Source: Lentisphaeria bacterium (lineage in GTDB: Bacteria; Verrucomicrobiota; Lentisphaeria; Victivallales; UBA1829). From it: a stretch of 64,000 bases of DNA. The position numbers and the translations under genes are program-made. Under the pieces are notes generated by a model, which was not told where the DNA came from, did no database searches, and saw nothing but the letters and a program-made list of their open reading frames with translations. Shown here one piece after another: positions 17,301 to 34,553 of this stretch. How positions within the stretch are numbered: the first letter of the stretch is position 1; every line of letters begins with the position of its first letter. The stretch lies in NCBI GenBank assembly GCA_017629515.1, contig JAGBXB010000054.1, forward strand, positions 60 through 64,059, given 5' to 3'.

Positions 17301-18115
17301 GCGCCGTCCTTGAAGTGTTTTACAGAAAAATCCCCTCTATTATTTTTGAACCTGTTGCAATATGCGGTTTGTTGGGACTGATTCTTGCCGTCATTTTCTT
17401 TCGGAAAGACTGGAAAAACAGGTATTATCTCTGGATAATATTTTCCTTGCTTCTTATGCTTTCCTGGCGGAGCATTATTCAAATTGTCTCTTCCAGATAT
17501 GGATTATTTCTGATGATACCTTTCAGTATTGCAGCAGGATATTTTTTCTCGAAACTGGAATTTCTCAACTTATATTTCAAAAAAATACCCCTAAAATACT
17601 TGAAATATCTTCCTTATCTGTGTGCAGGAATGATCGTTATTGCCGGTATCGCCAAAACTCTGGCAAAAGATCCTTATCAAGCCTATAAGAAAACAGGATT
17701 GGAAACCAGACAGGATATTGAGAAAAATAAAGAGGAGAAACTTTTTACTGCCGCCATCGGGGTATGTAACCAGGCAGCCAGACCCGGTCAACATTCCTAT
17801 TATTCCTCATTGCGCACTTATTGCCACCCCGCTTTGATACCGAAAGCAGGAAAGATCAACTTGTCAAAAGTGAAAAACATCATTCAACGGGAGTGTCACC
17901 GTAAAAACAGCAAATATGATGCGGTGTACTTCTTTCTCATTCAGGAAAGGAAAGACCCTGTCATTACCTCTTCCCATGTGCAGTTACCTGAAAATTCTTT
18001 TATCCTTGTTTCCTCGGAATACCGTAACAGAAAAAAGAAAAATATTTTGCGTGTATATAGATACATTCCTCCCAAAGGGACATTCCGGCGCCCGCTTCCG
18101 AAAATGAAAAAATAA
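17297..18115 (+). CDS. Hypothetical membrane protein
   Basis: Hydrophobic N-terminal half (SSRYG motif); ATGA overlap with the upstream gene. Confidence 0.7.
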   Translation: MSAVLEVFYRKIPSIIFEPVAICGLLGLILAVIFFRKDWKNRYYLWIIFSLLLMLSWRSIIQIVSSRYGLFLMIPFSIAAGYFFSKLEFLNLYFKKIPLKYLKYLPYLCAGMIVIAGIAKTLAKDPYQAYKKTGLETRQDIEKNKEEKLFTAAIGVCNQAARPGQHSYYSSLRTYCHPALIPKAGKINLSKVKNIIQRECHRKNSKYDAVYFFLIQERKDPVITSSHVQLPENSFILVSSEYRNRKKKNILRVYRYIPPKGTFRRPLPKMKK

Positions 18116-18138
18116 TTATTTTCTGCTGTTTAAAATCA

Positions 18139-18183
18139 AAAATTCCCGGAAAAGAATTTATCACATCTTTTCCGGGAATTTTT
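18139..18183. terminator. Bidirectional terminator
   Basis: AAAATTCCCGGAAAAGA...TCTTTTCCGGGAATTTT between convergent genes. Confidence 0.7.
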
Positions 18184-18425
18184 ATCTTCCTTTTTACATA
18201 CACATTGTAGACGAAATGGCTATGGGGACTCCTTGAACTGATTATTCTATTATCAAAACAAACAGAAAAAATTGTCTAAATAAAAGGCAAACAAGAGAAT
18301 AAAATAGATTATAATGAGGACTTAGCACTCTCAAGCATCAATCGCACACTATGCAAAGATTTTTGTTATAAAAAAACATTATTCACAGTAAGCCGCTTAC
18401 CCAAAAGTTCATACTGTTTATAGTA

Positions 18426-19562
18426 TCAGTAATTCAATATATATTTATTCAAAACTTCGTGATAGCGCGCAATTACGAAGTCAATATTAAACTCATTTTT
18501 CATCTTCATACGCCCTGCATATCCCATTTTCAGACGCTTTTCCTTGTTAAGTAATATAACTTTTTCTATGCATATAATTAAACTTTCAACATCCTTTGCA
18601 TTACATAAAAAACCACTAACGTTATTGTCAACTGTATCACGACACCCTACTGAGTTTGTTGTTATTAAAATTTTTTCCATTGCTGCACCTTCCATTAAAG
18701 AACGGGGAATACCTTCACGATAATAGGAGGGCAGCACAATACAATCAAATTGTTGAATAACAGGACGGACATCATCTGCAACTCCTAAATACTCGACAAA
18801 TCCTTTTTGAACCCATTGTTTCAGGTGTTCTTTCTGAATAGCACTGGGGTTATTTATGCCAACAAAACCTAACAGTGCAAAACGAGCATGCGGGTACTTT
18901 TTCTTGAGAATTTCAGCGGCCTTAACAAATTCTCCAACACCTTTATCCCATAACATCCTTGCGCACAATAAAAAAGATACATTTTGTGATTCTTGAACAG
19001 GCAATAGGGGGAGTGGTTTAAAGAATTCTAAATTAATACCTTCACTTTTAAGCAATTGGGCTTTTTCCGGAAAAACTAATTTTGATTCTACAAAAGTGTT
19101 CAAATCATCTTGATTAAGAAACCATACCTCATTTGGGAACCTAAACGCAAATTTATATAACATACGAGAGATCCAAGCAACAAAATTTTTATTGAGAAAG
19201 GTATATCCCAATCCAGTGGTAATGGCAATAACAGGAATTCCTGCAAAAAACGCAGCTATTGAACCATAAATATTGGGTTTGATCGTATAAAGAAAAATGA
19301 ATGTAGGATGCATATGCCGAAAAAGAAAAAATAACCTCATCATAAGTATTATGTCTTCAATAGGATTCACTCCCTTGGCAGAAAGTTTTACAGGTGTAAA
19401 ACGACATCCTAACTCTTCAATTTTTTTTGAAAATATCTCATCATAAGGAGCACATATGTTTACTTCATATCCCTTTTTTAAAAAACTCAAAAAAACTTCA
19501 CGTCTGAAGTTATACATACTCCAAGCGGTATTGCCAATAAACAAAATCTTTTCGACTCTCAT
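18426..19562 (-). CDS. GT4 family glycosyltransferase
   Basis: YTIKPNIYG, RMLWDKGV, YYREGIPRSLMEG (EX7E motif). Confidence 0.92.
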   Translation of the reverse strand: MRVEKILFIGNTAWSMYNFRREVFLSFLKKGYEVNICAPYDEIFSKKIEELGCRFTPVKLSAKGVNPIEDIILMMRLFFLFRHMHPTFIFLYTIKPNIYGSIAAFFAGIPVIAITTGLGYTFLNKNFVAWISRMLYKFAFRFPNEVWFLNQDDLNTFVESKLVFPEKAQLLKSEGINLEFFKPLPLLPVQESQNVSFLLCARMLWDKGVGEFVKAAEILKKKYPHARFALLGFVGINNPSAIQKEHLKQWVQKGFVEYLGVADDVRPVIQQFDCIVLPSYYREGIPRSLMEGAAMEKILITTNSVGCRDTVDNNVSGFLCNAKDVESLIICIEKVILLNKEKRLKMGYAGRMKMKNEFNIDFVIARYHEVLNKYILNY

Positions 19563-19574
19563 TGCAAATTGCTT

Positions 19575-20654
19575 TCAATGTTTGTTAGATAAAATGGGTG
19601 AATGGATTAGGGATGTATCCTTGAAATAAATATAAAATTGCATAAATAAAAGTAAAAATAAGAATATGAAATTGGTGCGGTAACGGATTGCTGACCCTGG
19701 ATTAAATACGCCAAAGGGCGCATGAATAAACAGAATCCCTCCGACAGTAATAAACAACACCATAAGATATAAACAATATTTTTTACAATTAGTAAAACTC
19801 ATCAGTAAAAAAGGAGTCAGTAGTTTAATAGTTGCAAATAATATCAATAGACTTTCACACGCTGTTAAAAAATGTAAAGGAGAATTTTTCATTTCCGATA
19901 CGGTAGGTCCCCAGAAAGCAATGAACATACTGTATGGCAAATACCGGAAAAAATCACCTTCTTCTACAAATATGTTATCCCTTGTAGAATTGCCACCTGC
20001 AAAATGTTCATACATTTGCATAGCAAAATAATCAACCGTCTCCTGGATATAGTAAAGCAATACAAGTTGGCTGACAATGATAACGAAACCAATCATAAAT
20101 GTCATTGCATTATTCAATTTAAATTTATGATAGAGCCAAATTAAGAATAAGCCTTCAAATATAAAAGGCATATAGTGCTTTTTAAATATTAGTAAAATTA
20201 CAAAGGCAAGCATATCACGAAAAGACACCTTAAAATCGCCGACAAAAAAGTTTGCAAACAGCACTCCAATAACAGCACTTGCAAATAAGCCGAACACTTC
20301 CTTGCCCAAAACCGATGTCCAAATACAAAAGGAGGGGGTCGATAACAAAAGTAATAAAAAAAGATTATTTATTTTGTTTTTAAGTTGTAATTCCTCAACT
20401 GCCCATTTAATTATTAAAAACGAAAAAAGAAAAAAAGAAAAATTTTGTAACACAGGAAATTTGAATATACTGAACAGATAACCTATCGAATCTACTATTG
20501 ATGTCGAAACATCACCTGTCAATACAACACGAAACTTATTAGCAGCTAAATAACGAGCATTATCCCCAAGCTGAGTAATATCTCCTACAAAAAATAATGT
20601 AAATAAATAGTAGAAGCTTCTTATAAAAAAATAATAATACCAAAAATATTTCAA
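19575..20654 (-). CDS. Putative Wzy polysaccharide polymerase
   Basis: AT-rich polytopic membrane protein inside a GT/flippase cluster; KE and NPGSAIRYR motifs. Confidence 0.6.
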   Translation of the reverse strand: MKYFWYYYFFIRSFYYLFTLFFVGDITQLGDNARYLAANKFRVVLTGDVSTSIVDSIGYLFSIFKFPVLQNFSFFLFSFLIIKWAVEELQLKNKINNLFLLLLLSTPSFCIWTSVLGKEVFGLFASAVIGVLFANFFVGDFKVSFRDMLAFVILLIFKKHYMPFIFEGLFLIWLYHKFKLNNAMTFMIGFVIIVSQLVLLYYIQETVDYFAMQMYEHFAGGNSTRDNIFVEEGDFFRYLPYSMFIAFWGPTVSEMKNSPLHFLTACESLLILFATIKLLTPFLLMSFTNCKKYCLYLMVLFITVGGILFIHAPFGVFNPGSAIRYRTNFIFLFLLLFMQFYIYFKDTSLIHSPILSNKH

Positions 20655-20737
20655 TCAAGTCCCCTGTATAACATCATGTATGATAATATTAATGAAATTT
20701 TTTAAAAAAGAACGCTAACAAATATATTATTTTAATG

Positions 20738-21694
20738 TTAACCTATTCTTGCTTTCATTAAAAATAATATGAAGCATGTTATAGAGTAATTTATCATCCC
20801 TGCCAATAAGAAAAGCTTTTTACTTAATGGCATATGCGTCCGGACAAATATACAATTTAAAAACTTTCTTTTGTATTGAAGAAATTCATGCTTACTTACA
20901 ATTTCAGGATGCCTTAACATAACATATAAAATTATTTGTTCATATGCCATTAGACAGGATTTAGCACATTGCCCACAACTTACTTCCGTTTCTATAAGGT
21001 CACGAATTTTTAACAAATCCTGAACATGACTGTATTTCCAATTTTTAGAAATAGATGACACATTGACAAAGTAATGATAAAATGGAACAGAAATATGACA
21101 TAAGTTGTTAGATTTACATAAATGATAAAAATTGCGAATAAAATCCTCATTCATACAGACATTTTTATCTAATAGTGTTATTGAACGACAAATATTTCTC
21201 TTATATAACTTTGTCCAAAGCGATGCATATGCAAGATTTGAACACATACGAAACATAAAACTACTGGAAGTTGTACAAGTTTCTTGTTTTATAATCTTTT
21301 TAGATTTTATTGCATCAGCATAATAATCACAATACACCATATCAGCATCAGTTGAGACCGCTTTATTGTACATAATTTCATACATATTCAAATCGACCCA
21401 ATCATCTGAATCACAATGAATAATATAATCACCATTTGCATGAGCAAGCCCAGTTTCACGGGCAGCTAAAAGCCCCCTGTTTACTTTATGGTGAATTATT
21501 TTTGTCTGATTTCTTCTTTGGGGATATTCGGCTAATACTTGCTCCAAAATCTCAATACTTTTATCTTTTGTACAATCATTCACAAAGATAAATTCAATTC
21601 CCTCCTGCATTGTCTGTTCAAACAGACTTCTAGCGCACCGTTCAATATATTTTTCAACGCCGTAAACCGGAATACAGACAGATACTTTAGGCAT
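20738..21694 (-). CDS. GT2 family glycosyltransferase
   Basis: KVSVCIPVYGVEKYI, VNDCTKD, CDSDD. Confidence 0.92.
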   Translation of the reverse strand: MPKVSVCIPVYGVEKYIERCARSLFEQTMQEGIEFIFVNDCTKDKSIEILEQVLAEYPQRRNQTKIIHHKVNRGLLAARETGLAHANGDYIIHCDSDDWVDLNMYEIMYNKAVSTDADMVYCDYYADAIKSKKIIKQETCTTSSSFMFRMCSNLAYASLWTKLYKRNICRSITLLDKNVCMNEDFIRNFYHLCKSNNLCHISVPFYHYFVNVSSISKNWKYSHVQDLLKIRDLIETEVSCGQCAKSCLMAYEQIILYVMLRHPEIVSKHEFLQYKRKFLNCIFVRTHMPLSKKLFLLAGMINYSITCFILFLMKARIG

Positions 21695-21710
21695 ATAAAT
21701 CTCCCGACAA

Positions 21711-22802
21711 TCAAATTCCCTGCCCAATGATTTGGGCGATTTTTTTCCAATATTGTGTAAAAATTGCCGGATCGTACTTATACACCGCATCCAAACCAAT
21801 ATTGTCAAATGCTTCCATTGCCTCTTCAATTGTATTCACAAAATGAATATATGGTAATTTTTTCAACCACAAGGAATAAACGCCCTCAACCTTTTGAGAT
21901 GAATTATTTAATGCTATACATGGAGTACCTGTGATTGCAGAAAATATCATTCCGTGTAATCTGTCTGTAATTACAAGTCTTGCAGAAGAAAACTCTTTAA
22001 ACTTATTTTTCAAAACCACTTCACGACATTGCAAAGGAATATCCGTTTTATAGACCATATCTGTAAAAGATACATTATCATATTTTCCTTGCACATAAGA
22101 AGTTAATTTCAGGCGTTCTGCAGATTTTATAACTTTTTCTTTGTCAGAGCGCAGACAAAATAATATTTTCTCCCGTTTATATTGTTGTTCTGATTTATTA
22201 AGGTAAAGAACAATATCCGGAGTTCCAATGACAGTGAATTTTTTATTGCAATTAAATACTTTCTCCATAAAATCAATAGATTTATCTCGAATAAATACTG
22301 TTAAATCCGGATGCTGCTCATAAGTATCCATGTATCTATGAAGATGCCGAGTGTGACAATTGTCTTTTTCCCAATAAATTGTTTGTGGAAAAATTATCAC
22401 TCTTTGACTACAAAACTCTCGCAAAGCAACATGAACCATAACTTCACAAATCCAATAGAGCGTCCCAAGATTACCGCCTCCATGCAATAATACGACACAG
22501 TCGTCTTTGTATTGAGACAATTTTTTATAACTTGAATAAAATGAACGGATTGGCACTTCAATTATATCTATTCCTGGAAAATAATCCATTAAAAATTTCT
22601 TTTCTGCTGCGGCAATGGCATGATCTCCAATATTTGAGTGTTCCGGGATTCCAATGATTAAAAACTTCTTTTGACCTTTTGTCTCTGCAAGATACTTCAA
22701 AATTTTTTGATCGGCTGTTCCCATTTTGTAAAGGACTATTGACAGGTATTCATACAAAGCGTCCGGCAAAATCTTTTTTATCGTTTTTTTCAATAGTTTC
22801 AT
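21711..22802 (-). CDS. Polysaccharide pyruvyl transferase
   Basis: HSNIGDHAI, GGGNLG, FPQT, ITDRLHGMIF. Confidence 0.9.
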   Translation of the reverse strand: MKLLKKTIKKILPDALYEYLSIVLYKMGTADQKILKYLAETKGQKKFLIIGIPEHSNIGDHAIAAAEKKFLMDYFPGIDIIEVPIRSFYSSYKKLSQYKDDCVVLLHGGGNLGTLYWICEVMVHVALREFCSQRVIIFPQTIYWEKDNCHTRHLHRYMDTYEQHPDLTVFIRDKSIDFMEKVFNCNKKFTVIGTPDIVLYLNKSEQQYKREKILFCLRSDKEKVIKSAERLKLTSYVQGKYDNVSFTDMVYKTDIPLQCREVVLKNKFKEFSSARLVITDRLHGMIFSAITGTPCIALNNSSQKVEGVYSLWLKKLPYIHFVNTIEEAMEAFDNIGLDAVYKYDPAIFTQYWKKIAQIIGQGI

Positions 22803-24337
22803 GCTTTCAATTTCCTTTTTATGTACATTGAGAGTTGCAATCTTTCAGATGCAGAAAGTCCAAACAGCACAGTTATAATTAGATTTATCAACGAAATCAA
22901 TACCAAATAAAGTATGATTGTATTCCATTTACCACTAACAAAAACTTGGGTAAGGATTCCACAAACAGCACTTATTCCTCCAACAATAGTTATCGGGATT
23001 ATAGCATTAAAAAAATAACTGATAACAGGGAAGTTTGCAACACGACACAGGTATATCAAGCGATAAAGCCACGCAAGGAAATTTATAACCGTATTAACCA
23101 AAGCAACAAAGTATGCAGGAACACCCATTTGCAGACAAATCAAAGAAAATAAGCATGTTGAACAAAGCAGTATGGACAATTCTATTTGATACCGGAGAAT
23201 ATTGCCAGTAGCCTGCACTGCTACCCACAGCGGTGCACTTATTGCATCAATTATAACACAAATGACCATAAACTGTGTAAAAATCACTACGCTGTCCGGC
23301 AAATTGTTCCCCAGCCAAAGTTTCAACAAAAACTCAGTTTGCAGTAAAAGTGGAAGTGCCACCAGCCACACTAAAAAAAACGAGTATTTAGAACAACTTT
23401 GCAACAAATCAAAAAATGCTTTGCGATCCGGATCATGAAAGGATTTCAATATTTGAGGGTTAAACGCTTGCTGAAAACTTATATAGAACTGGGTTATTGC
23501 TCCTCCAACTTGTGTAGCAATTCCCCATGTTGCATTAAGAATAACTCCACAAAATACATTCAAAAGCAGATTAAGTCCCTGTTGTCTGGATATGTTGGCA
23601 AGTGCACCAAAAAGGCTCCAGGAGAAAAATGAAGACATCTCTTTCAGATATTTTTTATCACAATGCAAGCCGATACGGCAGATAGAATATTTTTTCCAGC
23701 AATACAAGACATAAAAAAGGAGAATTATGAAATTGCTCAATGTATAAAATCCGGCGAAAAAAATGAGACGGTTTTCAGAGATCAAAAGTAATACTGCAAC
23801 AGACGCAAAATGCAAACAAACATCCAATATACTGATTTTAGCATAGGTTTGCATATTTTCATACGATGTTATTACTGCGATATAAGGGATCTGCAAAACC
23901 TTGAAAATAATCATAAAAATACTGAATTGATATACATTCAATGCCAAATTCATTTTGCAGCACGGGATATTCAGTTTGTTTTTCAAAAACCACAAACCTA
24001 TGGTTTCGGCAAACAGCACAACTAATGCAGATAGAACAATAAACAAGACAAGACTGGCAGAAAATACCCTGCGTATATTTTCTTCATTGTCTTTCCCCAG
24101 TTCACAACATAAAAAACGCTGAACAGTAGATTGCATTGCTCCACTGAAAAAACTGAATGCTGTAACTAAACCGAAAATTACATTGTAAAGCCCGTAATCT
24201 TCAATCCCCAAACTGGCAATCAACAATCTTACCGTGTAAAAGCCCAACAGCAATGCAAACAACATGCGTATATACAGTACCACCGTATTTTTGGTCATGC
24301 GTTTTTTATCAATATTATTTGAAGATGCGTTCATCAA
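22799..24337 (-). CDS. Wzx-type flippase (MOP superfamily)
   Basis: KNTVVLYIRM, LGIEDYGLYNV, AFNPQI.KS; about 14 TM segments. Confidence 0.85.
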   Translation of the reverse strand: MMNASSNNIDKKRMTKNTVVLYIRMLFALLLGFYTVRLLIASLGIEDYGLYNVIFGLVTAFSFFSGAMQSTVQRFLCCELGKDNEENIRRVFSASLVLFIVLSALVVLFAETIGLWFLKNKLNIPCCKMNLALNVYQFSIFMIIFKVLQIPYIAVITSYENMQTYAKISILDVCLHFASVAVLLLISENRLIFFAGFYTLSNFIILLFYVLYCWKKYSICRIGLHCDKKYLKEMSSFFSWSLFGALANISRQQGLNLLLNVFCGVILNATWGIATQVGGAITQFYISFQQAFNPQILKSFHDPDRKAFFDLLQSCSKYSFFLVWLVALPLLLQTEFLLKLWLGNNLPDSVVIFTQFMVICVIIDAISAPLWVAVQATGNILRYQIELSILLCSTCLFSLICLQMGVPAYFVALVNTVINFLAWLYRLIYLCRVANFPVISYFFNAIIPITIVGGISAVCGILTQVFVSGKWNTIILYLVLISLINLIITVLFGLSASERLQLSMYIKRKLKA

Positions 24338-24645
24338 ATTCTTTTTTGATAAGTATTATCCGGGATGTTCAATATTCAGGGTACAAGGAAAGATTGATCA
24401 TACAGTTTCTGTAATCCTGTTTCATCCTGAAATCTTTCCACAGCGCAGCACCGTAACGGGATTTAAAATTTCGTTACGGGAGGCAATAAAACACTTTTGT
24501 TTATTAATATAGAGGTAATAAGATAAATGTCAAGTTTATTTATTTTTTTTTTGATGGAAATGCTGTTTTTTCCGGGATGAAAGTAAAACGGGAACTTACT
24601 TTATAATAAGTTGGATACAGAAAATTTCATTGTATTCAAAAAGTA

Positions 24646-24682
24646 AAGGAATGAGTCCACTTGAATAGTAAACTCATTCCTT
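24646..24682 (-). terminator. Hairpin downstream of the QueG-like operon
   Basis: AAGGAATGAGT...ACTCATTCCTT. Confidence 0.5.
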
Positions 24683-24735
24683 CCAATTTAAACATTCTTT
24701 TCCCGGAATACCCGAAAAGACAACGGATATTTTTC

Positions 24736-25668
24736 TTAATCCAAAGGTAATTTCCAAACGGGCCTTTTCCGGAATAAAGTTTTGAATTTGCGTTTCAATA
24801 CCCCTTTTTCTTCCAGATGCACATAACAGGCTGTATCACATGCCCTTCCGCACATGGAAGAAACATAGCCATGCTTCATGGGAGGATAGAAATTGATCTG
24901 ATCAATGATCTCTCTTGCCCGTTCCGGGGAGAGATCCGCTTCGCCTGCAATAACTTTCAAGCGTTCAGGATCATTGAAAAAGGCATTAGGCGGCATAAAG
25001 GGATTTTTACTGCGGTTTGCCCCTTTGTAATAAGCAGAACACTGCCAGGAATCCCGTTTCCCATCCTCATAACGCAATGCATGTCCGGGGCAGGCTTTGA
25101 CGCACTCTCTGCAATCATCGCAAAGATGGGGAGTTACAAGGGGATCCGGGGGCAATTCTGCGTCGGTAATAATAAATCCCCAACGCTGGGAAGGACCGAA
25201 ATCATCGGTCAGGACAGAACCGGAAAAACCTATTTCCCCCAATCCGCAATCTACGGCACACGTTTCAAAATCCAATATGGTTTCCGCTTTTTTCCCACGG
25301 AAGACTTCATGGTGATCCACTTCAAAATTATTTTCCTCTTCTTCATTCATCACAAGTTGGAATCTCCTCTGGGGCAGTGCTTCAAAACCGGCTTCTTCCA
25401 GAACGGAACAACCGGCAAGCAATGCACCGGGGATCATGATCTCTTCCAATGTCTCAACGGATGTGGAGTACTGATAATATACCGTCCCTTCCTCGATCCC
25501 TCTGCGGGTTCCCCGCAACTGACGGTAGGCTATACAGATCACGCTTTTTGCTTCCGGCATCAATTTAATGATTGCCGGATCCCGCATACGGCTGATATTT
25601 CCGCAGCAGACGATATCTGCACGGCATTTTCTCAATGCCGCGAACAATTTTTCTTTCAGTTCTGTCAT
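24736..25668 (-). CDS. QueG/reductive dehalogenase-fold 2x[4Fe-4S] protein, paralog C
   Basis: AVDCGLGEIG...FGPSQRWGFIITDAEL; CDDCRECVKACP; WQC; CGRACDTAC. Confidence 0.8.
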   Translation of the reverse strand: MTELKEKLFAALRKCRADIVCCGNISRMRDPAIIKLMPEAKSVICIAYRQLRGTRRGIEEGTVYYQYSTSVETLEEIMIPGALLAGCSVLEEAGFEALPQRRFQLVMNEEEENNFEVDHHEVFRGKKAETILDFETCAVDCGLGEIGFSGSVLTDDFGPSQRWGFIITDAELPPDPLVTPHLCDDCRECVKACPGHALRYEDGKRDSWQCSAYYKGANRSKNPFMPPNAFFNDPERLKVIAGEADLSPERAREIIDQINFYPPMKHGYVSSMCGRACDTACYVHLEEKGVLKRKFKTLFRKRPVWKLPLD

Positions 25669-26570
25669 AATACACCTTTTTCTTTCAAGTGGCGGTAACA
25701 TGCCATATCACAGGCTTTCCCGCAGATACAGGGGATATATCCGGTTGTTTTACTGGGCAGGAAATTGATCTTTTTATAGATCTCTCTTGCGGATTGCCTG
25801 TCAAAGCGTTTATTACCGGAAAGGATGGCTTCTTTCTCCGGATCATCCATTAGGAAATCTTTCTCCATAAAGGGATTTGTTCCATGCGCCCCCCGGTAAT
25901 AAACGGCGCACTGCCAACTGTCCACGCCGTCATCGTCAATGGCTTTCCCGGGACAGACTTCTTTGCATTTTCCGCAATGATCGCACAAACTTTCCGGAAA
26001 AGGAGCATCACATTCCAGCGGCGCATCTGTCACAATGAAAGCCATACGCAGGAAAGGCCCCACCCCCGGCGCAATAAGATGACCGGAATCCCCCACTGCG
26101 CCCAATCCGCAGACTTTTGCGGCAAAGTTGAAGTCCATAATGATTTCCGGAGCGGGTTTATTTGGAGAAACGGCTTCGGCGTGGGCAAGTTCGTAAGTAT
26201 CCACTACTTCCGGATTGGTGGAGTGATCTCCTTTGATACGCAAGTTGGAAATATTTCTCTGCAAACAGGCGTCATAGCCTGCATTTTCGATCATGGAACC
26301 GATTTTAAAAAGAAAGATCTCTGCAAGATCCTCATCAATATATTTCACCCCCAGCTGGGTATATTGCATAAATTGTTTTCCCTCTTCCATCGTGCGGTAC
26401 AATGCACGGGGAACGCGGAAAAGGAATCCGATGACACATTTGGCATTGGGCAGGATCATTTTCGGATCCCGCCGGGGGTCAACGCCTTTGAAAAGTTCCA
26501 CATCCCCGATCCCTGTGGCGACTGCCCCCAGTTCTCTGGCTTTCTCTTTAATGATTTGAGCATTGAGCAT
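25665..26570 (-). CDS. QueG/reductive dehalogenase-fold 2x[4Fe-4S] protein, paralog B
   Basis: AAKVCGLGAVG...GPFLRMAFIVTDAPL; CDHCGKCKEVCP; WQC; CGKACDMAC. Confidence 0.8.
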   Translation of the reverse strand: MLNAQIIKEKARELGAVATGIGDVELFKGVDPRRDPKMILPNAKCVIGFLFRVPRALYRTMEEGKQFMQYTQLGVKYIDEDLAEIFLFKIGSMIENAGYDACLQRNISNLRIKGDHSTNPEVVDTYELAHAEAVSPNKPAPEIIMDFNFAAKVCGLGAVGDSGHLIAPGVGPFLRMAFIVTDAPLECDAPFPESLCDHCGKCKEVCPGKAIDDDGVDSWQCAVYYRGAHGTNPFMEKDFLMDDPEKEAILSGNKRFDRQSAREIYKKINFLPSKTTGYIPCICGKACDMACYRHLKEKGVL

Positions 26571-26583
26571 ATTTCATCCTTTC

Positions 26584-27651
26584 TCAACGGTCCATGACCC
26601 AGGGTTTACCTTTTCGCAAAGGCTCTTTGAATTTTCCCTCCATACAGCCGCCTTTCTTTTCCAGCATACTTACACATGCCCGGATACAGCCGCCGCATTT
26701 CGCCATATTATATCCCACCCATGTAGGGAAATATTTTTCCAGTGCCCGGTAAACTTTCAGGATCTCTTTTTCATTGGCAGTTGCTTTCCCTTCCAACAGA
26801 TCCAGATCACCGTTTTCGTTTTTATCCCACACTTCTTTCGGGACAAAGGGATTGAATTTTCTGCCCCCATGAGTATAGAAAGCATAACACTTCCATTCGT
26901 CGAGTTTTCCCCATTCACAGATCTTGCCGCCTACATTCACCCTGATACTTTCTGTTTTGCTCAAACAATTGCCGGGGCACTCCCGGACACAAGCCATACA
27001 ACGGCGGCAGAGGGGTTCTCCGTCATAAAGGGGGTCGGCAGTCAATTCCGCATCGGTAAAGATGAACGCAACGCGCTGCATGGGGCCGAAATCTTTTGTA
27101 AGGAACATTTTACTCCAACCGATCTCCCCCAGTCCGCATGCCACAGCGGCAAGCCGGAACTGGAATTGAAGATCCGGGGGGATCTGACCGGGACGGGCGG
27201 CACGGGTAAACTGGACAGAACGGTGGTGATTGGTTTTGCGTTTTGCCTGATTCATCACTTCGATCTGTTCTTCCGGAGAAAGAGTATTCCCCGGAGAGCC
27301 ATCCATATCGGAAACGCAGCCCCGTGCGCCGGTATTGCGGTAGATGAATGCTTCGTACCCGTTATCTTCGATCATCTGGCCCACCTGATACAATACTGCC
27401 GGGGCAAAGATCTCATTGATCCCTCCGTATGCCATGGAGGGGTACTGGTAGAATTGTGTTCCCTCCTCGATTCCCCGCTGTACTCCTCTGGGAATGCGGA
27501 AGACCATACCGATCACACTTTTTGCTTCAGGAAAGATATACCGGGGATCCATCTCTTTCGGAGCCCCTTCAAATCTGTCCATACTGCCGATACCGCACAT
27601 ATCGGCTCCGGCGGCAAGAGCGGCCTCTTTCACCATTTCATTTGTCAGCAT
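26584..27651 (-). CDS. QueG/reductive dehalogenase-fold 2x[4Fe-4S] protein, paralog A
   Basis: GADMCGIG, PEAKSVI, AAVACGLGEIG...FGPMQRVAFIFTDAEL; CRRCMACVRECP; WKC; CGGCIRAC. Confidence 0.8.
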   Translation of the reverse strand: MLTNEMVKEAALAAGADMCGIGSMDRFEGAPKEMDPRYIFPEAKSVIGMVFRIPRGVQRGIEEGTQFYQYPSMAYGGINEIFAPAVLYQVGQMIEDNGYEAFIYRNTGARGCVSDMDGSPGNTLSPEEQIEVMNQAKRKTNHHRSVQFTRAARPGQIPPDLQFQFRLAAVACGLGEIGWSKMFLTKDFGPMQRVAFIFTDAELTADPLYDGEPLCRRCMACVRECPGNCLSKTESIRVNVGGKICEWGKLDEWKCYAFYTHGGRKFNPFVPKEVWDKNENGDLDLLEGKATANEKEILKVYRALEKYFPTWVGYNMAKCGGCIRACVSMLEKKGGCMEGKFKEPLRKGKPWVMDR

Positions 27652-27741
27652 TTTTTCTCCTTTATTGAAGCGTTTCAAAAGTTCTCAAAAAAAGGCAAAC
27701 GCAGCCCTTTGATTTTTTGAATGACTTCTGAAATCACCTCT

Positions 27742-28761
27742 TTATACACCTTTATCCATACTTATTATGTCATTCAATTTCACCATCGCATTTTCCAATA
27801 CAGAAACACAATAGGAACAATTTTCACATTTTTTATCACATGCCAGGCGTTTTGCAAGGTAATCAGCCGGGATCTTTCTATTGTCAAGGATTGCGGAAGG
27901 GAATTTTTCCGAATGAGCGGGTTCCGTAAGATCCAGAAGATTGCCATGCCATTTGCCGTTGAAATAGGCAGTGACTACGGCAAGTGGATTGTAATTTGTC
28001 CTTGTGGCAAGTTTCATTCCGTCACAAAGTTCTTCATAGGCCGATACATCCTCCGGCCGGATGAAATTACTTTTCCCCAGCAGTTTTTTGCGTTTTTCTT
28101 CATCATCCAGATAGAGAGAACACAGTCCCTGAAAAAGAAAGGCATTGTCCATTTCCGCGATCTGATGCTGATGGGCAACAAGATTATCATGAAAAGTCCT
28201 CGCGGAACAATAATTGAGGCAGCCGCTGTTGGCTAATAAATACATTTTTTTGCCCTTGTTTCTACTGAACTGCCTCATACGCGATAAAACATTTCTGTCA
28301 TAATTATATTCCCTTTTCAGATAGAAACTGTGGAAATATTCTTCCAGATATTCTATTGCCTCCACTGTTCCAAGTTCCATATTGACGGAAGCACGCACTT
28401 CAAGAAAAGGGAAATTACTGCAAATAAACTTTGCAATAACAGGCGATGCTGTTGTAACGGAAGAAAGAGTGTAGGTGGAATGGATGAGATCGATACTGTC
28501 TCCAAGTTTCCGGAAAAAACTTCTGCCGAGAGCATTTCTCCCGTAACAGTTCCCATTTAAAAGCAAACAAAGTTTCACTCCTTTTTCAGAAAAAATTTTC
28601 AAATCTTCTTCCATGATTTTCTGTTCATCATACCCCTGAACGACTCCCCTTCCTGTGGTAAAATCCCCCCAGGGGAAATATAATTCCTGAATCTTTTCAG
28701 AGTGCTGCACAATGTATTGGATAAAACGCCTGTCGCTCTGGTATCCCACTTGAAATTTCAT
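27742..28761 (-). CDS. U32 family (peptidase-like, Fe-S) protein
   Basis: TIM-barrel pattern with LLNGNC, LANSGCLNYC...HDN, FIRPED, KLATR and a C-terminal CDKKCENCSYC. Confidence 0.7.
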   Translation of the reverse strand: MKFQVGYQSDRRFIQYIVQHSEKIQELYFPWGDFTTGRGVVQGYDEQKIMEEDLKIFSEKGVKLCLLLNGNCYGRNALGRSFFRKLGDSIDLIHSTYTLSSVTTASPVIAKFICSNFPFLEVRASVNMELGTVEAIEYLEEYFHSFYLKREYNYDRNVLSRMRQFSRNKGKKMYLLANSGCLNYCSARTFHDNLVAHQHQIAEMDNAFLFQGLCSLYLDDEEKRKKLLGKSNFIRPEDVSAYEELCDGMKLATRTNYNPLAVVTAYFNGKWHGNLLDLTEPAHSEKFPSAILDNRKIPADYLAKRLACDKKCENCSYCVSVLENAMVKLNDIISMDKGV

Positions 28762-28832
28762 AAGAAGAACTGTCCTTTTTTATTAACTGTCTCCGTAATA
28801 CATTTAATAATATAATTCCCCGCAATAAAAAA

Positions 28833-28873
28833 TCAAGTGTTTACTTGAAAAAAGACGGGAAAGATGCTATATT
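28833..28873. promoter_or_regulatory. Divergent promoter/operator region
   Basis: Palindrome TCAAGT-GTTT-ACTTGA overlaps TTGAAA-N17-TATATT immediately upstream of the LacI start. Confidence 0.45.
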
Positions 28874-28879
28874 TCCCGT

Positions 28880-29893
28880 ATGATAAGCATAAAAGAGATC
28901 GCCCGTCTGGCGGGTGTATCCGCAAAAACTGCGGAACGTGCGCTTTCCGGCGCAACGAAAGATAAAAGGCGCGATGCCAGAGAACGCGCAGGGAAAGTCA
29001 GAGAGATCGCCGCGTCCCACGGCTACCAGCCAAGTGAACTTGCGCTGGCGTTGCGTCGCGGCAGTACGCAAAGTATCGGTTTTTTAAGCGATGTCCTCAC
29101 CGACCAGTTCCTTGCAGCGGCGGCAGAAACCATTATGGATGAAGCGGCAAAAAATCATTACCGTACCTCTTTGAAAATCGCAAGATTTGATAAAGGCCAG
29201 ACTGAAGAAGAGATCAAATCTTTTCTTGCGTCCGGGGTGAATGCCATCATTACTTCCTGCGTCTCCCGGCAGCTTCCGGAACATATTTTCCATACACTGG
29301 AAAAAAATTCCTACCCGGTTTTCACCCTCTGCGGCAGAAGCACTTTTGATTTTTCCTCCGTTGCACCCGATTATTCTTCCGCATTGCCGCAAGCAGTGGG
29401 ATTTCTTGCAGAAAAAGGGCATAAAAAAATCATTCTTTCTCTTTTTGACGGCAAAGAATATGATAATAAGGTAACAGAAAATCTCTTCCGGAAAAGTTGC
29501 AGAAAAAACAAAGTGGATGGGGAGGTCCGTATCCATACCTCTTTACAGCAGGCAGCAGATCTTGCCGGTGAAATGCCCAAAGCAGTGATCCTGTACGGAA
29601 AATACTCCATGCGGCTTTTTATAGACCGGTGTATGCAGAAAAATCATATTCCTGACATCATTGGCTTTTACAATGAATGGACGTCTGCTTCCGCATTGAA
29701 ATTCCCTTTGCAGGGGATCATTCTGGAACAGGCGGAAAATGCCGTGCGTTTTGCCGTAAGGCAGGTGATCGGAGAACTCAATGGGGAAAAACGCTGTCAC
29801 AAACTTTTTACAGCAAAATTTGTAAAAAAAGAAGAATTTTCCTGTTTAAAACTCCCGGATCTTGCCAATCAGCGGCTTTTTGATATACAATGA
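28880..29893 (+). CDS. LacI family transcriptional regulator
   Basis: SIKEIARLAGVSAKTAERALS...GYQPSELALALRRG. Confidence 0.88.
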   Translation: MISIKEIARLAGVSAKTAERALSGATKDKRRDARERAGKVREIAASHGYQPSELALALRRGSTQSIGFLSDVLTDQFLAAAAETIMDEAAKNHYRTSLKIARFDKGQTEEEIKSFLASGVNAIITSCVSRQLPEHIFHTLEKNSYPVFTLCGRSTFDFSSVAPDYSSALPQAVGFLAEKGHKKIILSLFDGKEYDNKVTENLFRKSCRKNKVDGEVRIHTSLQQAADLAGEMPKAVILYGKYSMRLFIDRCMQKNHIPDIIGFYNEWTSASALKFPLQGIILEQAENAVRFAVRQVIGELNGEKRCHKLFTAKFVKKEEFSCLKLPDLANQRLFDIQ

Positions 29894-33170: not shown

Positions 33171-34553
33171 TCAATCTATCCCGTACTGGGCTATTTTTCT
33201 ATGTAAGGTTCTTCTGCTGATCCCCAGTTTTTCCGCTGCTTTTGTCCGGTTTCCGCCGCACTCATCCAAAGCGCGTAAAATGAGCAGTTTTTCATTTCTG
33301 GTAAGATCGCAGCTGGACGGGCTCAAAATCTTTCTGGTGATCCCCGGATCGGATTTTTCCCGGATATTTACAGGCACATTATCCAGATCTATAAGTTGGC
33401 CCCTTGTGAGGACCACCATCCGTTCAACGCAATTTTTCAGTTCCCGGATATTGCCGGGCCAGGAATAGGAACAGAGTGCGGACATGGCACTTTCGGATAT
33501 ACGCATATTGCTTCTGCCGTTTTCCTTTGAAAATACTTCGATATAATGATTGACGATGGGGGGGATATCCTCCAATCTTTCCCGCAAAGGTGGCAGTTTG
33601 ATATTCACCACATCCAGACGGTAGAAAAGATCTTCCCGGAATGTCCCCTCCCGCACCATCGCTTCCAGATCCCGGTTTGTGGCAGTGACCACTCTCACAT
33701 CCACCCGGATCGTTTCTGTCCCCCCCAGTCTTTCAAAGGAACGGTTTTCCAGCACCCGGAGGAGTTTTACCTGAATGGAAAGAGGGATCTCTCCTATTTC
33801 ATCGAGAAAAAGTGTTCCGCCGTCGGCAAGTTCAAACCTGCCTTTTTTCTGTTCCACAGCACCGGTAAATGCGCCTTTTTCGTGTCCGAAAAGTTCACTT
33901 TCCAGCAAAGTTTCCGGCAGAGCGGCACAATGCACCGGCACAAAACGGCCGCTTCTGCCGCTCAACTCATGTACTGCCTGGGCGATCAACTCTTTTCCCG
34001 TACCGCTTTCGCCGGAAATGGTGACAGTAGCCCGACTGGGGGCGACCTGCCGGATATTGTCAAGGATATTCTGCAAAGCGGCAGAATTTCCCAGAATATT
34101 GCTTACACCGAAACGGTTGGAAAGCTGTTTTTTCAATTCCCGGTTCTCCTCCCTGATCCTGCCGGACTCCAATGCCCGTTCCATAAGGATCTCCAAGCGG
34201 TCGAAATTCACCGGCTTTTCCATAAAGTCGAATGCGCCTTTTTTCATCGCCTCCACGGCACTTTCGATGGAACCGTAAGCCGTAAAAACGATACAGGGCG
34301 GAGGATTTTCCTTTGCCAGAGCTGTTTCCAATACCGTAAAACCATCTGCACCGGGCATACGGATATCCGTAAGGATAAGGTCATAGGAGTTGCGCTTGAT
34401 AAGATTGATCCCCATCAGACCATCTTCTGCAGTGGTCACATCATATTTCATACGCAGAAAGCGGTTGAGTACATCTCTTGTTCCCCGTTCATCATCCACA
34501 ATAAGGATGGAGGGTCTTTTTTCCTGTTCATACATATCTTTTTCCCTGACCAT
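33171..34553 (-). CDS. sigma54-dependent response regulator (NtrC/AtoC family)
   Basis: Receiver domain, GESGTGKE, GAFTGA, WPGNIREL, Fis-type HTH. Confidence 0.93.
   Translation of the reverse strand: MVREKDMYEQEKRPSILIVDDERGTRDVLNRFLRMKYDVTTAEDGLMGINLIKRNSYDLILTDIRMPGADGFTVLETALAKENPPPCIVFTAYGSIESAVEAMKKGAFDFMEKPVNFDRLEILMERALESGRIREENRELKKQLSNRFGVSNILGNSAALQNILDNIRQVAPSRATVTISGESGTGKELIAQAVHELSGRSGRFVPVHCAALPETLLESELFGHEKGAFTGAVEQKKGRFELADGGTLFLDEIGEIPLSIQVKLLRVLENRSFERLGGTETIRVDVRVVTATNRDLEAMVREGTFREDLFYRLDVVNIKLPPLRERLEDIPPIVNHYIEVFSKENGRSNMRISESAMSALCSYSWPGNIRELKNCVERMVVLTRGQLIDLDNVPVNIREKSDPGITRKILSPSSCDLTRNEKLLILRALDECGGNRTKAAEKLGISRRTLHRKIAQYGID

Follow-up and report, generated by a model that had tools for sequence, protein, structure and literature searches.

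To our knowledge, only dehalogenation and epoxyqueuosine reduction are established as reactions of the class of B12 enzymes that comprises the reductive dehalogenases (RDH; catalytic protein RdhA) and QueG, and the U32 enzymes have aromatic or heteroaromatic hydroxylation as their sole established reaction. QueG converts an epoxide to an alkene, and MMACHC/CblC forms a third family whose nitroreductase-like B12 fold binds cobalamin. In the available text of a review, the U32 oxidases (UbiU/UbiV, TrhP and RlhA) are described as acting on RNA bases and ubiquinone precursors, and their electron partner as not known (PMC11574389). Here we analyzed a stretch of 64,000 nucleotides (nt) from a Lentisphaeria bacterium (GenBank assembly GCA_017629515.1, contig JAGBXB010000054.1, positions 60 to 64,059 of the forward strand; hereafter, the window). 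At positions 24,736 to 29,893, the window carries a cassette of a gene for a divergent U32-fold protein and three paralogous genes (A, B and C) of RdhA/QueG fold, which stand opposite a gene for a LacI-family regulator. On balance, we lean towards reading this cassette as an inducible, cytoplasmic, heteromeric Fe-S and probably corrinoid-containing reductase that acts on a carbohydrate-derived substrate jointly with an Fe-S enzyme of U32 fold. The results support the interpretation that a first-pass annotation had given to the operon.

The four genes of the cassette are encoded on the minus strand in the order U32-like gene, A, B and C. The U32-like gene (27742-28761) encodes a single-domain protein of 339 amino acids (aa). 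Paralog A (26584-27678, minus strand) has 364 aa when counted from a TTG at 27678, and its true start is likely the ATG at 27651 (residue 10), because orthologs and the Atlas record begin there. Paralog B (25665-26570, minus strand; 301 aa) follows after 13 nt, and both A and B show the RdhA/QueG fold with two [4Fe-4S] motifs. Paralog C (24736-25668, minus strand; 310 aa), the sister of B, begins within the end of B: in the junction sequence GGTGTATTATGACAGAA, the TGA stop codon of B and an ATG share the letters ATGA, giving a 4-nt overlap. The longest open reading frame (ORF) listed for C extends over 24736-25701; the shorter gene was adopted because of the ATGA overlap and because orthologs start C at the same ATG. 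The regulator gene (28880-29893, plus strand; 337 aa) is divergent from the other four. ORF coordinates, strands, junction sequence and ortholog starts bear out the layout first read from this DNA, namely four co-oriented genes, a B stop and C start that overlap as ATGA, and a divergent LacI gene.

The arrangement recurs widely. With B as the query, 21 loci were recovered from genomes of Lentisphaeria/Victivallales, Opitutales, Verrucomicrobiaceae, Planctomycetaceae and Clostridia; all four genes were visible in 19 of them, and the other two were cut by contig ends. A scan of metagenome contigs provided 80 more loci (101 in total). All four genes were present in 55 of the 58 loci with enough flank, i.e. 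at least 1300 nt upstream and at least 2100 nt downstream of A. These counts were derived from tblastn because ORF calling gave antisense ORFs in some high-GC loci. The synteny of the U32-like gene and the triad, on whose occurrence in other genomes the first-pass annotation had staked its interpretation, is thus repeated many times, and the recurrence in 55 of 58 loci confirms that the four-gene set is real and more than a chance arrangement. The U32-like gene mostly stands before A; it stands after C in three loci (L060, L063 and L065) and is divergent in two.

A homologs (E ≤ 1e-60) were found in 26 of 301 sampled genomes of the phylum, including 10 of 21 in the family of the source genome, but not in the genome of the same genus. 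With this patchy distribution, the cassette is accessory. Two of the genomes with hits, G163 and G166, are complete and consist of a single contig. Homologs of the U32-like protein (E ≤ 1e-30) were found in 59 of the 301 genomes, including all 26 that are positive for A. On a larger scale, a profile search recovered 1985 family representatives at E ≤ 1e-10 and a word-index search about 2000 B homologs, and the carriers are gut, rumen and sediment anaerobes of at least four phylum-level groups. The stretch of the window itself is present with large shares in animal-gut metagenomes of two studies, one of which may be where the window came from (the habitat was read from large-share rows only).

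Minimal cassettes consist of one or two reductase genes and a U32-like gene. Two reductases and a U32-like gene lie behind an IclR regulator in L116, and a single reductase and a U32-like gene lie behind AraC regulators in L117 and L118. The reductase that pairs alone with the U32-like protein in such cassettes is of the A type. In two further loci, a xylose-isomerase-like TIM barrel (PF01261) is encoded beside the triad with no adjacent U32-like gene (genome G163, locus L121, 9922-10776; genome G154, locus L123, 3798-4730), and this barrel may functionally replace the U32-like one. L121 also carries a gene for a DUF4838 protein of 1211 aa.

A, B and C are 34-39% identical to one another. They share the block A..CGLG..G...GP..R..FI.TDA.L, within which A178, C181-G-L-G184, G187, G198-P199, R202, T208-D209-A210 and L212 (A numbering) are invariant in all three. 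Eight more cysteines are invariant (C224, C227, C230, C234, C264, C328, C331 and C335), which is enough for two [4Fe-4S] clusters; the CGLG/GP/R/TDA segment and the two cysteine cluster motifs noticed at first sight are therefore common to the three proteins. Sequence searches returned short matches. In Pfam only weak ferredoxin motifs were found, an Atlas look-up with A returned only “ferredoxin-type” clusters, and local matches to the NCBIfam models of RDH and QueG covered about 65-105 residues at 25-48 bits. Against solved chains, the B-family profile matched PceA (7e-12), the RDH complex 8q4h (1e-10) and QueG (1.5e-10), and the A-family profile matched 8q4h (2.5e-14), PceA (2.9e-9) and QueG (2e-4). 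The match between the A family and 8q4h spans 119 profile positions, among them the insert of the ferredoxin region.

An AlphaFold2 model of B, the one paralog of the three that was modelled alone (47 sequences; predicted local distance difference test (pLDDT) score of 81), has the architecture of the superfamily at the level of the fold: a cobalamin core of the nitroreductase type, after which comes a ferredoxin part for two [4Fe-4S] clusters. Foldseek ranked QueG first (1e-9), then RdhA enzymes, then MMACHC. VIA alignments gave Z scores of 16.2-16.8 for QueG, 14.1 for PceA, 13.7 for 8q4h, 13.3 for NpRdhA and about 10.5 for MMACHC, and scores of 5-6 for nitroreductases that bind flavin mononucleotide (FMN). 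Because the top matches are all cobalamin proteins and the FMN nitroreductases reach only Z 5-6, the modelled fold is assigned to the B12-binding branch of the nitroreductase-like superfamily, and A, B and C probably bind a corrinoid. The genome encodes proteins with B12-binding domains. A is the most conserved protein of the set, with 70-92% identity between phyla (Lentisphaeria versus Clostridia loci), compared with 54-83% for B, 48-80% for C and 45-74% for the U32-like protein.

The closest structural relative of B, QueG (TIGR00276; PDB 5d08, 5d0a and 5d6s; 205-214 residues aligned at Z 16.2-16.8), is similar in being cytoplasmic, in having a cobalamin-type core ahead of a ferredoxin part with two clusters, and in the block (A/C)G(L/I)G...G(P/S)..R/Y...T(D/N) plus CxxCxxCxxxC. 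However, the paralogs score far below QueG: in the protein scan, TIGR00276 gave 24.8 bits for A, 42.7 for B and 36.9 for C against a cut-off of 200 (22.9-40.8 bits in the genome search), whereas true QueG proteins of the same phylum score 275-374 bits. The DYH motif, present in all ten QueG rows of our alignment, is found in none of the 38 rows of A, B and C, as had been noted for the three proteins of the window; the aligned residues are GIN in A, YID in B and TLE in C, and the place of the motif is taken by a paralog signature, RG..RGIEEG..QY. The available text of a structural study lists His106, Asp134 and Arg141 as key residues of QueG (PMC5175355), and by our mapping onto that text the His of DYH is probably His106, the proton relay of the Bacillus subtilis enzyme. 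The whole 301-aa model of B aligns to residues 2-253 of QueG only, so that nothing corresponds to the C-terminal tRNA-binding part, and no HEAT or DUF1730 match was obtained with Pfam in A, B or C.

A phylogenetic tree was reconstructed from 52 rows (13 A, 13 B, 12 C, 10 QueG and 4 reductases from variant cassettes) by a quick IQ-TREE search under LG+G4. As it contains no RdhA rows, it addresses the QueG clade only. QueG, A, B and C each formed one clade with a Shimodaira-Hasegawa-like approximate likelihood ratio test (SH-aLRT) value of 100, joined by a long branch. B and C were sister clades (SH-aLRT 96), and the lone reductases of minimal cassettes grouped with A (99). Each of the A, B and C clades crosses phyla, and the clades have congruent sub-structure. 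The first-pass annotation had proposed a profile search and a phylogeny against QueG, with placement inside the QueG clade as the outcome that would speak against it; the paralogs fall outside. True QueG occurs in 48 of 121 sampled genomes, and in none of 11 in the family of the source genome and none of 20 in the sister family. No QueG above the cut-off was found in the source genome, which is 82% complete. This genome encodes QueH (169 bits) and Tgt, and QueH already covers the step there. By contrast with QueG, the present cassette groups three paralogs and a U32-like gene in one operon, whose regulator is of a sugar type. Identity of A, B or C with QueG is ruled out by the scores of 23-43 bits against 200, the lack of DYH, the separate clades and the QueH gene, although some sources label B homologs “epoxyqueuosine reductase QueG”. 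The same low scores, separate clades and QueH and Tgt genes favour the suggestion that the module does not act on tRNA. The Tgt match lies outside the window (G000:C126:78979-80043) and has one in-frame TAA in the matched range, which may be a real break or an alignment past the gene end.

Similarities to RdhA are also evident. PceA (4uqu), the RDH complex (8q4h) and catabolic NpRdhA (4ras/6zxu) share the fold of B (Z 13.3-14.1), and the A-family profile is closest to 8q4h (2.5e-14). The Arg of the GP..R block is kept in the paralogs and aligns with the Arg in the GPNVR of PceA, which we take to be an active-site residue. On the other hand, TIGR02486 (RdhA) gave 33.4 bits for A, 47.7 for B and 36.6 for C, against a cut-off of 160.35. 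The first 40 residues of A, B and C are free of a twin-arginine pattern, no small RdhB-like anchor gene fits in the operon (gaps of 13 nt and a 4-nt overlap), and a fused NADPH reductase is lacking; the reported absence of a twin-arginine translocation (Tat) leader and an RdhB-like gene was correct. Moreover, A, B and C lie beside carbohydrate genes rather than organohalide genes. MMACHC/CblC shares the core fold (Z about 10 to the B model) but lacks the Fe-S part and is a trafficking and processing protein. In the available text of a cold-seep survey, diverse “RdhA-like” genes are grouped as putative dehalogenases, some of the cytosolic ones lying near IclR/MarR regulators and galactose genes (PMC12219181). 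This set may include relatives of the A/B/C family.

The label “U32” given to the first gene of the cassette holds for the fold and not for the family model. No match of PF01136 (model cut-off 22.4 bits) to the U32-like protein was obtained at E ≤ 0.1, a six-frame PF01136 search of the genome missed its gene while finding three ordinary U32 genes at 226-235 bits, and a PDB sequence search with the protein returned nothing under E = 1. A PF01136 match is precomputed for 8 of the 120 listed homologs, and a few homologs carry the name U32 peptidase or PrtC-like in their source records. The structure is more informative. An AlphaFold2 model (49 sequences; pLDDT 89.3) had as its top match 5d88 (U32 peptidase Mk0906), the sole solved U32 structure. 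Foldseek gave E 1e-10 and a template-modelling (TM) score of 0.72 on the target, the next rows being 7e-6 and worse; VIA gave Z 18.6 with a root-mean-square deviation of 3.1 over 221 of 247 residues, the next row being at Z 13.2. A weak profile-profile match to the U32 proteins of the same genome was obtained with hhalign (E 1.2e-4, probability 54.7%, 221 columns), in which C181 and C214 fall on two cysteines of the U32 motif. We therefore class the protein as a divergent U32-fold protein and not as a member of PF01136.

Four cysteines (C72, C181, C185 and C214) are invariant in 49 homologs and make up a probable cluster site, which could hold a [4Fe-4S] cluster. The U32 oxidases likewise combine a TIM-barrel fold with four cysteines, two of which align with those found here, and both groups occur in anaerobes. 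They differ in the spacing of the cysteines, C72...C181-X3-C185...C214 here as opposed to CX6CX15CX3C, the motif given in the available text of the review (PMC11574389). They also differ in context: the present protein is a single 339-aa domain without a PF01136 match, tied to RdhA/QueG-like reductases and sugar genes and not to quinone or RNA pathways.

The heteromeric nature proposed for A, B and C gained support from structure prediction. With A as partner of B and C, the complex prediction scored 0.96 in three runs, compared with 0.74 for the best of three controls (C replaced) and 0.00 for unrelated partners; of 80 solved complexes, 58 scored this high, as did 2 of 110 mismatched pairs, a calibration that is only rough for a prediction with custom alignments and three chains. 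The runs agreed in at least 87% of contacts, with a partner pLDDT of at least 79. The predicted interface takes in much of the signature region (residues 60-78 of A and 49-78 of C). Among the 150 best family representatives, 33 have at least 500 aa, most of them about 725-836 aa (e.g. P0280, P0289, P0290 and P0306). Each of the 14 of these with domain tables consists of two or three tandem reductase modules; two full modules were seen in every one, in some together with a degenerate middle one. These long proteins are natural fusions within the wider family. The B/C overlap, the fixed gene order, the congruent sub-structure of the clades and the fusions also hint that A, B and C form one enzyme.

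ORFs on the flanks of the 101 loci were clustered, and Pfam was used to annotate them. A LacI-type regulator is present in 25 loci and a divergent AraC-type regulator in 19. A cupin family of about 118 aa occurs in 26 loci, in 22 of them between A and B. DUF5696 proteins with weak similarity to glycoside hydrolase (GH) family GH101 occur in 16 loci and usually adjoin the cassette directly. Gfo/Idh/MocA oxidoreductases were found in 7 loci, GH63/MGH1-like proteins in 5 and 6 loci (two entries), and MFS transporters in at least 4. A YgjV-type membrane protein is encoded in 5 loci, inside the cassette in some Clostridia-type loci. A radical-SAM/SPASM family is also present in 5 loci, in 4 of them between the U32-like gene and A and in the fifth upstream of the cassette; its gene encodes 331 aa (L077 8983-9978, L084, L089 and related loci). 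Scattered neighbours include GH130, GH3, GH88, GH36, GH42, GH20, GH2, a rhamnosidase-like protein, polysaccharide deacetylase, FGGY kinases and solute-binding proteins. The idea of an inducible module that responds to a sugar-derived ligand fits the LacI/AraC regulators, the glycosidases, the MFS transporters, the sugar kinases and the conserved palindrome described below. A xenobiotic or organohalide substrate is conceivable as well.

The regulator of the window matches PF00356 with 29.7 bits (cut-off 27) and PF00532 with 27.3 bits (cut-off 22.2) in the Pfam scan. It thus has the N-terminal LacI helix-turn-helix and the periplasmic-binding-protein-like sugar domain that define the LacI/GalR family. 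It is not a named LacI type, because its scores against all NCBIfam equivalogs are far under cut-off. Its orthologs adjoin the cassette in related loci, and the ortholog cluster spans 25 loci. The intergenic region contains a palindrome at 28784-28806 (unstranded), TAACTGT-N9-ACATTTA, which is reported as an inverted repeat and is a candidate operator. In an alignment of five U32-like/LacI intergenic regions, the columns of TAACTGT-N9-ACA(G/T)TTA are invariant or nearly so. In the 2.9-Mb assembly there is one exact site plus one site with one mismatch, the latter within an ORF on another contig. A regulon search of the whole assembly with the palindrome gave no second credible site and hence no clue to the substrate. 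The single exact site fits a local, dedicated regulator.

A consensus scan gave candidate promoter-like sites for both directions of transcription. That of the cassette (28809-28836, minus strand; TTGATT, 16 nt, TATATT; 9 of 12 consensus matches) lies 48 nt 5′ of the U32-like start codon. That of the regulator gene (28845-28873, plus strand; TTGAAA, 17 nt, TG-TATATT; 10 of 12 matches) has conserved columns in the alignment of the five intergenic regions. Its -10-like hexamer ends 6 nt ahead of the ATG (28845-28882), and the regulator mRNA may for this reason be leaderless or nearly so.

From gene order, homology, folds, conservation and genomic context, together with the modelled A-B-C assembly, we infer the cofactor, substrate class, reaction type, mode of repression and electron donor as follows. 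The cassette would be one regulated transcription unit, belonging to an oxygen-independent redox system of anaerobic glycan degraders; the 13-nt gap between A and B, the 4-nt B/C overlap and the promoter-like and terminator-like sites on its flanks speak for an operon. The LacI-family protein would probably repress it at the palindrome just downstream of the promoter-like site, and a sugar-derived inducer would release the protein. A, B and C would probably form a heterotrimer with two [4Fe-4S] clusters and a cobalamin-type pocket per subunit. A, as the constrained subunit, is probably the catalytic one; B and C, as older duplicates, may be partner subunits, may conduct electrons or may provide additional active sites. 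The electrons are proposed to come from a low-potential carrier, for example ferredoxin, because the cassette encodes no dedicated reductase, and they would pass via the clusters to the corrinoid. The corrinoid, in analogy to QueG and RdhA, may carry out a two-electron reductive elimination in which a C-O bond, or another bond between C and a heteroatom, is cleaved. As the substrate we propose a small molecule derived from carbohydrate, which the neighbouring glycosidases and transporters would release or import. The U32-like barrel with its four invariant cysteines may perform a coupled step on the same substrate, either an oxygen-free oxidation or hydroxylation, or a step of the isomerase or lyase type. 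More speculatively, and as an unlikely elaboration in our estimate, an oxidative step at C-H/C-OH on the barrel could be electronically coupled to corrinoid C-O cleavage, with a net redox-neutral deoxygenation or hydroxyl migration as the outcome. If true, such sugar editing would give anaerobes a way to channel into glycolysis a sugar derivative that they could not otherwise ferment; class III B12 enzymes would gain their first carbohydrate substrate and U32 enzymes their first non-aromatic one.

Several observations weigh against the reading of the cassette as a corrinoid-containing heteromeric reductase with a U32-fold partner. The sequence likeness to RdhA and QueG spans about 65-120 residues only, namely the core block and the first Fe-S motif, to which the match of A with 8q4h adds part of the ferredoxin domain, and cobalamin binding is argued from likeness of fold. 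A cobalamin riboswitch was not found in the 82%-complete assembly, a negative that is not evidence of absence. As to the assembly, A still scored 0.74 when C was replaced, the calibration is rough as stated, and the score may partly reflect likeness to solved structures, since PceA crystallises as a homodimer. In the U32-like family, CX6CX15CX3C is not kept as such; most members have C166-X14-C181-X3-C185, and the protein of the window has Ser166 where at least 90% of the 49 homologs have Cys. The link between barrel and triad is not strict either: A-B-C occurs without a U32-like gene in 3 of the 58 flanked loci (L086, L087 and L091) and also in L121 and L123, and U32-like paralogs also stand alone, as in L122 (7316-13240, genome G238), where five tandem copies, 31-35% identical to that of the window, have no reductase nearby. 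This array adjoins a MetH-like gene. The neighbouring glycosidases vary from locus to locus, so that no single substrate emerges from them. Finally, an RNA library contained one 279-nt contig identical to part of gene A and pieces of A from relatives (85-90% identical), which is a weak sign of expression for which DNA carry-over is a possible source.

Alternatively, the U32-like barrel could be the sole catalyst and convert a sugar without oxygen, for example as a hydroxylase, dehydratase or isomerase; A, B and C would then have lost corrinoid chemistry and would be its dedicated multi-cluster electron wire or scaffold. The eight cluster cysteines are kept in all three paralogs, the catalytic DYH of QueG is replaced, and RG..RGIEEG..QY lies mostly in the predicted subunit interface and not in an obvious pocket; U32 oxidases also have no known electron partner according to the review text (PMC11574389). 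This division of labour seems rather doubtful to us. No protein of the set is more constrained than A (70-92% across phyla), and such constraint would be unusual for a mere wire, and the cobalamin-type domain is whole in all three paralogs, with Z 10-17 to B12 proteins versus 5-6 to flavin nitroreductases. Furthermore, A-B-C persists without any U32-like gene in five loci. It is improbable, given TIGR02486 scores of 33-48 bits versus 160, the lack of a Tat leader and RdhB, the animal-gut habitat, and neighbours that are glycosidases, sugar kinases and sugar regulators instead of aromatic or haloacid pathways, that the paralogs are cytoplasmic reductive dehalogenases for organohalides of natural or human origin, perhaps for halogenated sugars or glycosides, comparable to the catabolic NpRdhA/BhbA. 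We also know of no dehalogenase with a fixed three-paralog set and a U32-like partner. Such a role would nonetheless agree with the closeness of the A-family profile to respiratory RdhA (8q4h 2.5e-14; PceA 2.9e-9), with the alignment of the GP..R Arg to that of PceA GPNVR, and with the survey that lists cytosolic RdhA-like genes as putative dehalogenases in its available text (PMC12219181).

A role in RNA or cofactor modification, with QueG-type paralogs and a U32-like hydroxylase of the TrhP, RlhA or UbiU type, is nearly excluded, and we give it hardly any weight. The QueG labels of some B homologs, the rank of QueG as top structural match of B and the known action of U32 oxidases on RNA bases and ubiquinone precursors, according to the review text at hand (PMC11574389), are outweighed by the QueG scores (23-43 bits versus 200, and 275-374 for true QueG of the phylum), the separate clades, the absence of DYH in 38 rows, the match of B to residues 2-253 without the tRNA-binding part, the presence of QueH, the patchy, accessory distribution and the sugar-type regulators. 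We retain the inducible, probably corrinoid-dependent reductase with its U32-fold partner as the working interpretation.

In the open-access literature, which excludes subscription-only papers and supplements, we found no description of this module, nothing on DUF5696, nothing on a gene cluster of U32 with epoxyqueuosine reductase and nothing that brings reductive dehalogenases together with U32 and polysaccharides. Papers on QueG-like proteins or QueG homologs were found there, none of them on this family, and among the matches listed the “RdhA-like” literature is all on dehalogenation. What is new here are branches of the class III B12 and U32 superfamilies that would act as one module: the A/B/C family represents a third, widespread branch of the RdhA/QueG class, tied to a divergent U32 branch. 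Once identified, its substrate would extend anaerobic carbohydrate metabolism by one reaction and would allow the labels “QueG”, “ferredoxin”, “U32 peptidase” and “putative dehalogenase”, among others, to be corrected in databases. It would also make the cassette a tractable system for the function of U32 Fe-S barrels and for the question of who gives or takes their electrons.

Downstream of the cassette, the consensus scan detected a terminator-like hairpin (24645-24683, minus strand) with a 17-bp stem and a T-rich tail, 53 nt past the stop codon of C; like the promoter-like sites, it is a candidate by sequence alone. Directly beyond lies a low-GC block (18000-24400; 31-34% versus about 45% elsewhere) that encodes a GT2 glycosyltransferase, a polysaccharide pyruvyl transferase and a multi-pass membrane protein of 512 aa, which has no Pfam match and is flippase-like by eye. 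The block is probably a horizontally acquired surface-polysaccharide island, and this polysaccharide-synthesis block is unrelated to the cassette. Beyond the regulator side, the window encodes a sigma-54-dependent response regulator of the NtrC type and a HemW-like radical-SAM protein (33171-34553), which are probably unrelated to the cassette as well.

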